A stretch of 64,000 nucleotides of DNA from an uncultured Verrucomicrobiae bacterium (lineage in GTDB: Bacteria; Verrucomicrobiota; Verrucomicrobiia; Chthoniobacterales; Xiphinematobacteraceae): NCBI GenBank assembly GCA_963706715.1, contig CAVPNI010000004.1, positions 192,001 through 256,000 on the forward strand, written 5' to 3'. The translations under genes were made by a program, and so were the position numbers. Of the stretch, positions 49,612-50,867 are shown one piece after another; position 1 is the first letter of the stretch; each line of letters starts with the position of its first letter. Below the pieces are notes generated by a model. The model saw only the letters and a program-made list of their open reading frames with translations, did no database searches and was not told the origin of the DNA.

Positions 49612-49762
49612 CCTGCCGGAGGACTCCGCGTAAGCGGAGAGCGGCAGGATCAAGGCGACGCTGTATCTCGCGTAAGTTGTGTGATTATCATAGCCAGCAG
49701 GTTACGTGACAGGCCGCTCTTCCCCATTCCTCCGAGCAGAGCGAGGCTAATTTTTACTTGCC
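49612..49762. repeat. ~150-bp structured element, copy 2
   Basis: Colinear with 37903-38053; supplies the stop codon of the EF-G-IV-like gene. Confidence 0.85.
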
Positions 49763-50154
49763 GAAGAAAATGTCATTTCCATGAGCTTTCTACCAGCATC
49801 TCGGCCTGCCATTCGGAATGCATTTGGACTTGAATCAACTTCGTGTTCTTCGGCGTCAAGGAACGTAATGCAAATATCGCTGAGAGGAGCCTGATTAGAA
49901 ACCAGTAAAACATCGCAAAGACCAAATACCGCTGCCTGTAAATACCCCTCTCCCTCTAACTTTTCTCGCTTTGAATCGTTGATGTTAAAATGCACAGCGA
50001 AACCATCAGAAGGCTCCGCCTTTACTCTTATTCTAGCAAATTCCCAGCGTGGCCCCAGGTGAGTATCACGCAGCCCCTCCGCTTCTATTGTCTTTTGTAA
50101 GACAATAGACTTCCTTTTTATTACATTTTGAGCCCAAGACATAAGATAATCCAT
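49747..50154 (-). CDS. Stand-alone EF-G domain IV-like protein in immunity position
   Basis: EAEG...G.R.EFARIRVKAEPSDGF; YLQAAVFG; PLSDICITFLDAEEHEVDSSPNAFRMAG aligns by eye with EF-G [28 protein letters not shown]. Confidence 0.82.
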   Translation of the reverse strand: MDYLMSWAQNVIKRKSIVLQKTIEAEGLRDTHLGPRWEFARIRVKAEPSDGFAVHFNINDSKREKLEGEGYLQAAVFGLCDVLLVSNQAPLSDICITFLDAEEHEVDSSPNAFRMAGRDAGRKLMEMTFSSASKN

Positions 50155-50162
50155 AGGTGATT

Positions 50163-50867
50163 TTATAAACCAGAATTGAAGAGGTCTATTGCATCTGGAG
50201 AATATAGTCGTTTTTCGTATCCACGCACATAGGGAATATTCTGCCATTTAAGCGTCTGAAGATGTGCAGGACGTGGCGCAATTCCACGATTCATGAGGGC
50301 TGATTCTTTCAGTTCATGCATATAAAAAGCGATATCGTGATCAGTACGAAGTCCGGAACGCAACCTTTCTAGCATGCGAGCATTTGCAGGATCTTGGAGA
50401 GCCGATCTACCAAATGCATCTTCAAGACCGGGTCTCGAAAGATGTTGTTCAATTCGGACAATACCCTTTCCGGTTACATTCGGCATTCGCATAACCGTCG
50501 TAGCTGGTTTCCCAAACAACGGCTTAACGCCAGCCTTAGCAACATCGCCTATCAAAGGTACAAACGCCAGCCCAGCCATGGCAACCCCTACACTGGTCCT
50601 GATATTCCAACCTTCTGTTCTACCAGCATTAAAAGCGGCTGATAGGTCTCTGATATCGGCGGCCTGTCCAATCCCAGGCACAAAACTCGTTCCTACTTGC
50701 CCGATAAATTTCCCAATAGCTTGCGCTGTGTTACTGGGATTGTAGTCATAACGTAGACGTTCGTTATAACCAGGTCCGAAATAATTAGTAAACGCGAAGC
50801 TTAATCTGGGCAGAAGCAGAACAAGAACTACGAGGAAAGTAAGACGATTAACTAAATTGTGTATCAT
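50163..50867 (-). CDS. Orphan pre-toxin plus HExxE...AH toxin with possible signal peptide
   Basis: NTAQAIGKFIGQVG...GDVAKAGVKPLF shared with the main Rhs; FYMHELKE...PAH. Confidence 0.8.
   Translation of the reverse strand: MIHNLVNRLTFLVVLVLLLPRLSFAFTNYFGPGYNERLRYDYNPSNTAQAIGKFIGQVGTSFVPGIGQAADIRDLSAAFNAGRTEGWNIRTSVGVAMAGLAFVPLIGDVAKAGVKPLFGKPATTVMRMPNVTGKGIVRIEQHLSRPGLEDAFGRSALQDPANARMLERLRSGLRTDHDIAFYMHELKESALMNRGIAPRPAHLQTLKWQNIPYVRGYEKRLYSPDAIDLFNSGL

Follow-up and report, generated by a model that had tools for sequence, protein, structure and literature searches.

Why does a gene for an isolated domain IV of elongation factor G (EF-G) lie directly behind a toxin? The two genes are found in a 64,000-nucleotide (nt) stretch of the genome of an uncultured Verrucomicrobiae bacterium (assembly GCA_963706715.1, contig CAVPNI010000004.1, positions 192,001-256,000), hereafter the window, whose own numbering is used below. 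On the minus strand, an open reading frame (ORF) for an orphan Rhs C-terminal toxin (Rhs-CT) of 241 amino acids (aa) (50163-50888) ends with a TAA stop codon and, after a spacer of 8 bp (50155-50162), is followed by a gene encoding a protein of 135 aa, with its ATG at 50154 (49747-50154). A preliminary description of this DNA had reported the arrangement, likened the 135-aa protein to EF-G domain IV, and proposed that it confers immunity as a decoy of the toxin's target. Its coordinates are exact, both for the layout and for the two signature motifs, FYMHELKE in the toxin (50327-50304) and HEVDSS in the small protein (49845-49828). The analysis presented here supports its interpretation in part, and indicates that the immunity protein probably blocks the toxin by posing as its target, which would make EF-G a target so far unrecognised in warfare between bacteria.

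The likeness of the 135-aa protein to EF-G domain IV is far beyond chance. Pfam detects EFG_IV (PF03764) over residues 88-126 only, with 27.5 bits (E 2.9e-6), above the gathering score of 24. A phmmer search of PDB aligns residues 16-122 with residues 477-582 of Thermus thermophilus EF-G (E 4e-4), and a profile of the protein's family reaches PDB EF-G at E 9e-8 over residues 20-123. When this family was compared by hhalign with 23 EF-G domain IV sequences, taken from the bacterium's own genome and 20 relatives, the two aligned over 104 columns with a probability of 96.7 and an E of 3.4e-10. The AlphaFold model, with a predicted local distance difference test (pLDDT) score of 92, retrieves EF-G domain IV in all top rows of a Foldseek search (E 2.3e-10, template modeling (TM) score ∼0.7, root mean square deviation ∼2 Å, ∼116 residues). 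The protein thus shares the fold of EF-G domain IV (T. thermophilus EF-G 477-592, PDB 2bm0 and 1dar) and homology along the whole domain, at 27% identity over 112 residues to the single EF-G of its own genome.

As the preliminary description had pointed out, there is no GTPase domain. Indeed, EFG_IV is the only domain in the protein, which stands alone without the G domain or any of domains II, III, and V and cannot function as a translocase. NCBIfam models of EF-G give it 18-21 bits, far under their cut-offs of 513-890, and it has no match among known immunity families (SUKH, Imm families, and others in Pfam) or in PHROGs and PADLOC. Its family, which we call A1, comprises at least 28 clusters of 94-169 aa; fused relatives were not found in a search among longer proteins, although this is weak evidence. 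The gene is also readable as 166 aa from a start at 50247 in the ORF list, and 135 aa is taken as the real length because homologues begin at MDYL/MKDYL. We propose that the protein is an ancient duplicate of EF-G domain IV.

The toxin domain itself (50166-50516, minus strand; 117 aa as analyzed, with a core of ∼105 aa) has an all-helical AlphaFold model (pLDDT 90) and belongs to no known family or fold. The tip of the window has no match in Pfam, NCBIfam, PHROGs, or PADLOC, 11 family members gave only scattered single weak Pfam matches (E ≥ 0.05), and no PDB sequence matched better than E 0.56. A Foldseek search of the model against PDB gave a best E of 2.1, and VIA-align against 48,161 chains gave a best Z of 4.7, which is inside the noise of the tool. 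Aminoglycoside-kinase C-lobe, lysozyme, and Doc rows, which recurred in these fold searches, were dropped as noise. A peptidoglycan hydrolase, considered because of an "E-S" in KES and the weak lysozyme rows, was also rejected, since a signal peptide is missing from the immunity protein and the structural matches do not rise above noise. All clusters retrieved by a feature search of the Atlas were labeled "hypothetical protein"; in one of them, 37% of the members carry Pyocin_S. HMMER identified the domain in 772 representative clusters at E ≤ 1e-3 (348 at E ≤ 1e-10), always at the C terminus. As assessed by Pfam on the 42 longest matches, the carriers are of RHS_repeat/YD-shell, PT-HINT, and TcdB/SpvB types, with nothing on the tip itself. 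We propose that this tip is a previously undescribed, widespread helical domain of ∼105 residues, and that it is an enzyme.

A candidate active site emerges from conservation, counted over the 98 sequences, out of 154 aligned, that cover the whole domain. In the numbering of the toxin domain, H67, E68, and E71 are present in all 98, H85 and M48 in 97, R51 in 96, D61 in 95, H25 in 94, and N45 in 82. The invariant residues are H25, R51, D61, H67-E68-x-x-E71, and H85, corresponding to H149, R175, D185, H191, E192, E195, and H209 of the ORF. The HELKE motif (H191-E195 of the ORF, 50304-50318, minus strand) would form the core of the putative site. In the model, H67, E68, and E71 lie on a helix spanning residues 59-76 and H85 on the helix spanning residues 81-91, at a height matching H67 and E71 as read from the secondary-structure string only. 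The combination of H-E-x-x-E and a His one helix further on is suggestive of a metal-dependent hydrolase. The HExxH motif of zincins and gluzincins is absent (HExxE in 98/98 sequences), and no zincin is found among the Foldseek or VIA-align rows for the all-helical model. There is no conserved Cys, and the candidate site is His/Glu-based. The isoelectric points of toxin domains (median 6.0, range 4.3-9.5, n = 29) and of A1 immunity proteins (median 6.2) would argue weakly against a nuclease paired with a nucleic acid mimic.

Whether stand-alone EFG_IV genes accompany such toxins, a question raised by the preliminary description, was addressed from the toxin side by a metagenome scan using toxin patterns only, which yielded 56 loci in 46 clusters at 95% identity. 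The gene directly downstream of the toxin belongs to A1 in 22 of the 46 clusters, with gaps of 0-97 bp. It belongs to a second family of ∼180-190 aa, A4, in 15 more, and to a third, unrelated family of ∼113-135 aa (immC) in five; nothing lies directly downstream in three clusters, and one has no flank. Because the hidden Markov models for A4 and the third family were built from the same surveyed loci, the counts for these two families show clustering and not independent detection. Close relatives of the toxin carry A1 (26 of the 29 loci L028-L056, with toxin-domain E of 1e-17 or better), whereas distant relatives mostly come with A4. Toxin and stand-alone EF-G domain IV are a conserved two-gene module. 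We consider it very likely that the toxin ORF and the 135-aa ORF of the window are a cognate toxin-immunity pair, and the immunity role of the 135-aa protein is well supported.

A4 is probably a very divergent EF-G domain IV. It aligns by hhalign with A1 (E 7.8e-4) and, in register over 84 columns, with EF-G domain IV (E 0.004), placing YGLLG on GQYGHV and AAxCEVGSSPxxF on SYHxVDSxxxAF. Pfam EFG_IV is found in one of 13 members (L059, L063, L065-L070, L073-L075, L079, and L082), weakly (E 0.05). EF-G domain IV accounts for seven of the 10 structure matches listed for an Atlas model of one member (predicted TM score 0.89), with TM scores of 0.50-0.51 over ∼111 residues. The most conserved parts of A4 are the two tip loops, YGLLG and EVGSSP. 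On this reading, members would also have an insertion of ∼18 residues, and most of them have Cys at the position of EF-G H573. A short metagenome contig (L066) bears two toxin tips (490-762 and 3037-3309), with an A4-type gene after the first, an arrangement that suggests a tandem array of tip-immunity cassettes. The third family, in which the pattern MSLTHIRL...WGAW.M.IHHYA recurs (for example L054:1849-2250, L055:501-866, L061:245-583, and L062:1312-1665), is unrelated to EF-G domain IV, A1, and A4 as assessed by hhalign (E 0.36-0.75), and Pfam finds nothing in it.

A complementary survey started from the immunity gene and covered 25 genome loci in Verrucomicrobiota, Acidobacteriota, Planctomycetota, Proteobacteria, and Myxococcota. 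A toxin domain lies directly upstream in eight of them, full-length in five and as a remnant in three. The 17 copies without a toxin include four that are split by frameshifts (L018, L019, L021, and L024) and two fragments, and such copies look like orphan immunity genes in varied states of decay. In Acidobacteriota, toxin-less EFG_IV copies lie beside housekeeping-looking genes and have Ser or Gly in place of W37 (L008-L013 and L020). In the genome of the window, toxin and immunity gene are each single-copy. A Pfam EFG_IV search did not find a stand-alone EFG_IV in 20 relatives, and when 400 other genomes sampled from the phylum were searched with the A1 profile, none gave a match at E ≤ 1e-12. 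The immunity gene behaves as an accessory gene, like orphan immunity genes. Two genomes of the same genus, G003 and G004, are single contigs of ∼0.9 Mb, against 3.0 Mb for the genome of the window, a striking range of sizes.

The tip of domain IV consists of two loops, which we compared between 28 A1 members and the 23 EF-Gs. The phmmer alignment sets the register, with H32-F39 equivalent to T. thermophilus Q500-Y507 (loop I) and H104 to H573 (loop II). Loop II (HEVDSS, residues 104-109; 49828-49845, minus strand) is nearly identical in A1 and EF-G, which have H, V, D, and S in common; the His equivalent to H573 and V-D-S-S are kept. In contrast, loop I (HLGPRW, residues 32-37; 50044-50061, minus strand; equivalent to Q500-G505) has been rewritten. 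Where EF-G has QSGGRGQY, A1 reads HLGPRWEF and keeps G34 and R36 only, i.e. two of eight positions. The replacements (Q>H, S>L, G>P, G>W, Q>E, and Y>F) are fixed family-wide, and the Gly-Gly of EF-G is Gly-Pro in 25 of the 28 immunity proteins. Beyond these loops, A1 differs from EF-G by an extra N-terminal helix and an invariant AFRxAGRDAG helix. A loop that is fixed within the family yet unlike EF-G has the look expected of a substrate-derived inhibitor. Because loop I differs systematically at six of eight positions, a tight, non-reactive pseudo-substrate inhibitor fits better than a sacrificial copy. In this respect, the earlier idea of a decoy has to be refined.

The complex of toxin tip and immunity protein was predicted with each partner supplied with its own, unpaired alignment. 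The interaction prediction score from aligned errors (ipSAE) is 0.75 (0.76, 0.75, and 0.71 in individual runs), versus 0.00 for the best control. At least 85% of the contacts are common to the runs, and the partners have a pLDDT of 87 or higher. The calibration mark for ipSAE is reached by 116 of 157 solved complexes and by two of 215 mismatched pairs, and is only a rough guide here since own alignments were used. Because no similar complex has been solved, memory of a known structure on the part of the predictor is unlikely. The interface comprises toxin residues 25-26, 44-45, 67-68, 71, 82, 85, 96-101, and 104-105, and immunity residues 27-29, 31-37 (loop I), 105-106, 109-111 (loop II), 115, 118-119, and 122. 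In this arrangement, both tip loops (HLGPRW and HEVDSSPN) enter the invariant His/Glu pocket of the toxin, and G34 and P35 contact H67, E68, E71, and H85 with the lowest expected errors. The toxin side takes in all invariant polar residues but R51 and D61, namely H25, N45, H67, E68, E71, R82, H85, E101, and Y105. Conserved residues are enriched at the interface of the toxin (18/32 versus 20/85 outside, one-sided Fisher p = 0.001) and of the immunity protein (9/19 versus 21/116 outside, p = 0.008), although this is not fully independent evidence because the predictor sees the same alignments. It is likely, on the strength of this model, that the domain IV tip plugs the conserved pocket of the toxin.

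Several features suggest that this pocket normally receives the tip of EF-G itself: loop II specific to bacterial EF-G is retained at low overall identity, the tip and no other face forms the predicted interface, a domain IV-like partner recurs in a deeply divergent branch, and loop I is conserved within the family yet different from EF-G. In the mechanism that we propose, the toxin-immunity cassette would be kept as a spare ("orphan") tip behind the large Rhs toxin gene. H67-E68-x-x-E71 on one helix and H85 on the next would form the active site, with H25, R51, and D61 nearby. The immunity protein would insert both tip loops, which in EF-G are the part pushed into the decoding center, into the His/Glu pocket and so block the toxin. 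The natural substrate in a rival cell would be the domain IV tip of EF-G, whose loop I (QSGGRGQY) would lie over the catalytic residues. As a pseudo-substrate, the immunity protein would keep the recognition elements G34, R36, and H-x-V-D-S-S, and its loop I replacements would make it non-reactive or tighter-binding. When the tip of domain IV is damaged, EF-G continues to bind ribosomes and translocates very slowly; therefore, even partial inactivation of EF-G should poison the cell. On eEF2, the same tip is modified by diphtheria-type toxins, which kill in this way.

The chemistry is the most speculative part. The toxin may catalyze metal-dependent hydrolysis of the loop I backbone at Gly-Gly, which the Gly-Pro of the immunity protein would resist, although we regard a peptidase as doubtful. 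Alternatively, it may modify the side chain of a loop I Gln, Ser/Thr, or Tyr, and a side chain-modifying enzyme would be equally compatible with the immunity loop, from which the hydroxyl or amide groups of Gln, Ser, and Tyr have been lost. Target mimicry is plausible, in a form sharper than that of the preliminary description. That the toxin is an enzyme acting on the EF-G domain IV tip, with an EF-G-derived non-reactive pseudo-substrate as its immunity protein, is a proposition to which we give an even chance. EF-G as the target, taken by itself, is likewise evenly poised.

A number of observations weigh against this reading. EF-G is proposed as the target from resemblance, and the surface filling the pocket, with six of the eight loop I positions changed, is only partly EF-G-like. 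The fold of the toxin has no match and gives no chemistry, and because HExxE is not the HExxH of zincins, any chemistry assigned to it is a guess. The predictor may be drawn to conserved patches, with unpaired alignments and a rough calibration. Because five of 46 toxin clusters use a family unrelated to EFG_IV and three use none, mimicry is not required for neutralization, and the unrelated family in particular counts against EF-G as the target. A search of PDB sequences with the A4 profile does not retrieve EF-G, so that the assignment of A4 to EFG_IV depends on weak profile scores and the Atlas lead. Finally, 17 of the 25 genomic immunity copies have no toxin domain within the retrieved flanks, and several of them have a looser loop I with W37 replaced.

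These observations leave room for other explanations, each of which accounts for part of the data. EF-G domain IV could have been recruited merely as a binding scaffold, the real target being unrelated (RNA, a nucleotide, or another protein). The use of an unrelated immunity family by some toxins and the departure of loop I from EF-G would be expected in that case; the conserved His, Glu, and Arg of the toxin would also suit a small RNase, and no fold match constrains its chemistry. A mere scaffold would not readily explain why loop II keeps the bacterial EF-G-specific H-x-V-D-S-S...A-F at only ∼27% overall identity, why the predicted interface is made by the tip loops and not by another face, or why the far more divergent A4, probably EFG_IV-like, again conserves its tip loops. 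That toxins are not consistently basic and immunity proteins not strongly acidic is a further, weak point against a nuclease with a nucleic acid mimic. Overall, we consider an unrelated target rather unlikely. The stand-alone EFG_IV might also not be an immunity protein at all, and instead have a cellular role of its own, as a ribosome-associated factor or in target protection at the A site, its adjacency to the toxin being secondary. The toxin-less genome loci, some beside housekeeping-looking ORFs, would fit such a role. We nevertheless find it very improbable in view of the A1 genes lying 0-97 bp behind the toxin in 22 clusters, a predicted complex that passes its controls, the failure to find the gene in 20 relatives and 400 sampled genomes with the searches described above, and the accessory-gene behavior of toxin-less copies, among them the frameshift-split and fragmentary ones.

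EF-G could, on the other hand, be an accomplice of the toxin and not its victim. The toxin would bind the domain IV tip as a co-factor or as a vehicle into the ribosomal A site, and the immunity protein would block the surface that docks EF-G. Mimicry and the predicted interface fit this equally, and toxins that need a translation factor have precedents: one report describes a requirement of SRLase1 for EF-Tu (bioRxiv 10.64898/2026.09.18.752725), and some CdiA-CT toxins also depend on EF-Tu, that of EC869 reportedly requiring EF-Tu/Ts (PMC9071432). Set against this, the predicted interface buries the invariant H67, E68, E71, and H85, so that a toxin binding EF-G in the same way would have no obvious free active site, and a domain of ∼105 aa is very small for two separate functional surfaces. 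We therefore regard a role of EF-G as vehicle as improbable. Returning to EF-G as substrate, the fullest version of that proposal is a widespread, unnamed toxin family, delivered by contact or secretion, whose members act on rivals as enzymes and kill them by disabling the decoding-center tip of EF-G domain IV, with immunity provided by a duplicated domain IV turned pseudo-substrate and either retained over deep divergence or invented twice (A1 and A4). For this combination of claims, our confidence falls slightly short of even.

The cassette lies in an array of toxin tips headed by a large Rhs/YD-repeat toxin gene of 3259 aa (51308-61087, minus strand), whose own C-terminal tip is an LHH (HNH/EndoVII) nuclease (PF14411, E 1.8e-10, in a scan of the last 260 aa). 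A SUKH_5/SMI1-KNR4 immunity gene for this main tip follows (50848-51393, minus strand; PF14567, 34.9 bits versus a cut-off of 27). The orphan Rhs-CT ORF starts with a GTG that overlaps the SUKH gene, and consists of a junk N terminus, a pre-toxin linker, and the toxin domain. The Rhs core and the DPLG (DPxGL) cleavage motif are not in this ORF and are both in the main gene, which reads SPDPLGH in translation; because it has neither, the ORF is an orphan tip. According to protein alignment, the pre-toxin linker (ORF residues 51-124; 50517-50738, minus strand) is common to the C terminus of the main Rhs protein and to a second orphan tip (46314-46859). The orphan and main genes share the sequence NTAQxIGKFIGQVG...AMAG...GDVAKAGVKPLF, after which the rest of the orphan is a different tip. 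The linker is probably a handle for recombination; at the DNA level, the orphan resembles the main rhs gene only over a short, diverged stretch (80% over 50 nt).

The second orphan tip, on the minus strand, has the AMAG...VKPL linker in common with the others, and a 119-aa ORF lies behind it (45948-46307, minus strand); neither has a Pfam or NCBIfam match. A 181-aa ORF (46856-47401) and a 162-aa ORF (49041-49529) are also unassigned, and may be stray immunity genes. The 162-, 181-, and 119-aa neighbors have no homologue in the 81 toxin/immunity loci surveyed (L001-L025 and L028-L083), where there is no conserved third gene. An ISL3 transposase gene (47720-48868, plus strand) lies inside the array of orphan tips. 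It matches DDE_Tnp_ISL3 (E 6e-50) and has a zinc ribbon, and the match ends at profile position 195 of 240, so that the C terminus may be truncated. The main Rhs protein has an unusual N-terminal region of ∼1100 aa ahead of the YD repeats, with a signal peptide-like start, short Arg/Gln/Asp-rich repeats (QRRADQRAE; tandem repeats in the DNA at 59804-60206), and ∼3 long repeats of a HEW..YQNVSREPR(L/W)QKLLE module. A 51-nt tandem repeat in the same gene (52442-52577) encodes PGTLTLPAPPPNKLVLL.

How does this system compare with those already known? Diphtheria toxin and exotoxin A would share its strategy, provided that EF-G is indeed the target, in that a single enzyme disables the translocase at the tip of domain IV. 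These toxins are ADP-ribosyltransferases acting on a modified His, diphthamide, of eukaryotes or archaea, whereas here a novel helical domain would act on bacterial EF-G, and a copy of the domain under attack provides the protection. Tet(M) and Tet(O) are EF-G paralogues that use domain IV loops for protection. FusB and FusC confer resistance to fusidic acid; FusB is a small EF-G-binding protein, and FusB-EF-G-70S structures (9ghc and 9ghd) appear in our Foldseek list. All of these shield translation from small-molecule antibiotics, whereas the domain IV copy described here is predicted to bind a protein toxin directly.

In its architecture, the system resembles other polymorphic toxins. Rhs and other polymorphic toxins have a C-terminal tip and an immunity gene behind it, and include orphan tip-immunity arrays (Zhang et al. 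2012, PMC3482391). The toxin described here is likewise C-terminal, on Rhs/YD, PT-HINT, and TcdB/SpvB-type carriers, with a small immunity gene directly downstream, and the orphan shares the linker of the main gene. It differs from known systems in that Pfam has no family as such for either the toxin domain or the immunity protein, and the terms "EF-G," "elongation factor," "EFG," and "mimic" do not occur in the 300,000 of 357,715 characters of that paper that were searched. A precedent for the proposed attack is Cpe1, of the Cpe1-Cpi1 pair, a papain-like (cysteine) protease toxin that acts between bacteria and inactivates an essential protein, GyrB/ParE, by cutting a conserved loop at a Gly-Gly motif (PMC12136450). 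EF-G loop I is also Gly-Gly under the predicted catalytic residues, although the present toxin has no conserved Cys and a candidate His/Glu site, and the paper on Cpe1 does not use the word "mimic." Single mentions of EF-G or EFG_IV in two other papers (PMC7159879 and PMC9025141) proved irrelevant. In the literature searched, which included few subscription journals and no bioRxiv supplements, we found neither an antibacterial protein toxin directed at EF-G nor an EFG_IV-type immunity protein, or any other copied from a translation factor domain, in line with the preliminary description, which was aware of no such example.

If the proposed mechanism is true, it would give interbacterial toxins a class of target not known before, on a surface that is among the most conserved in bacteria. 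It would also be a clean case of immunity evolving from the target, meaning that the targets of uncharacterized toxins could be read from their immunity genes. An enzyme of ∼105 residues and its natural tight inhibitor would become tools for studies of translocation, and the pair would represent a bacterial counterpart of the diphtheria toxin strategy against eEF2.

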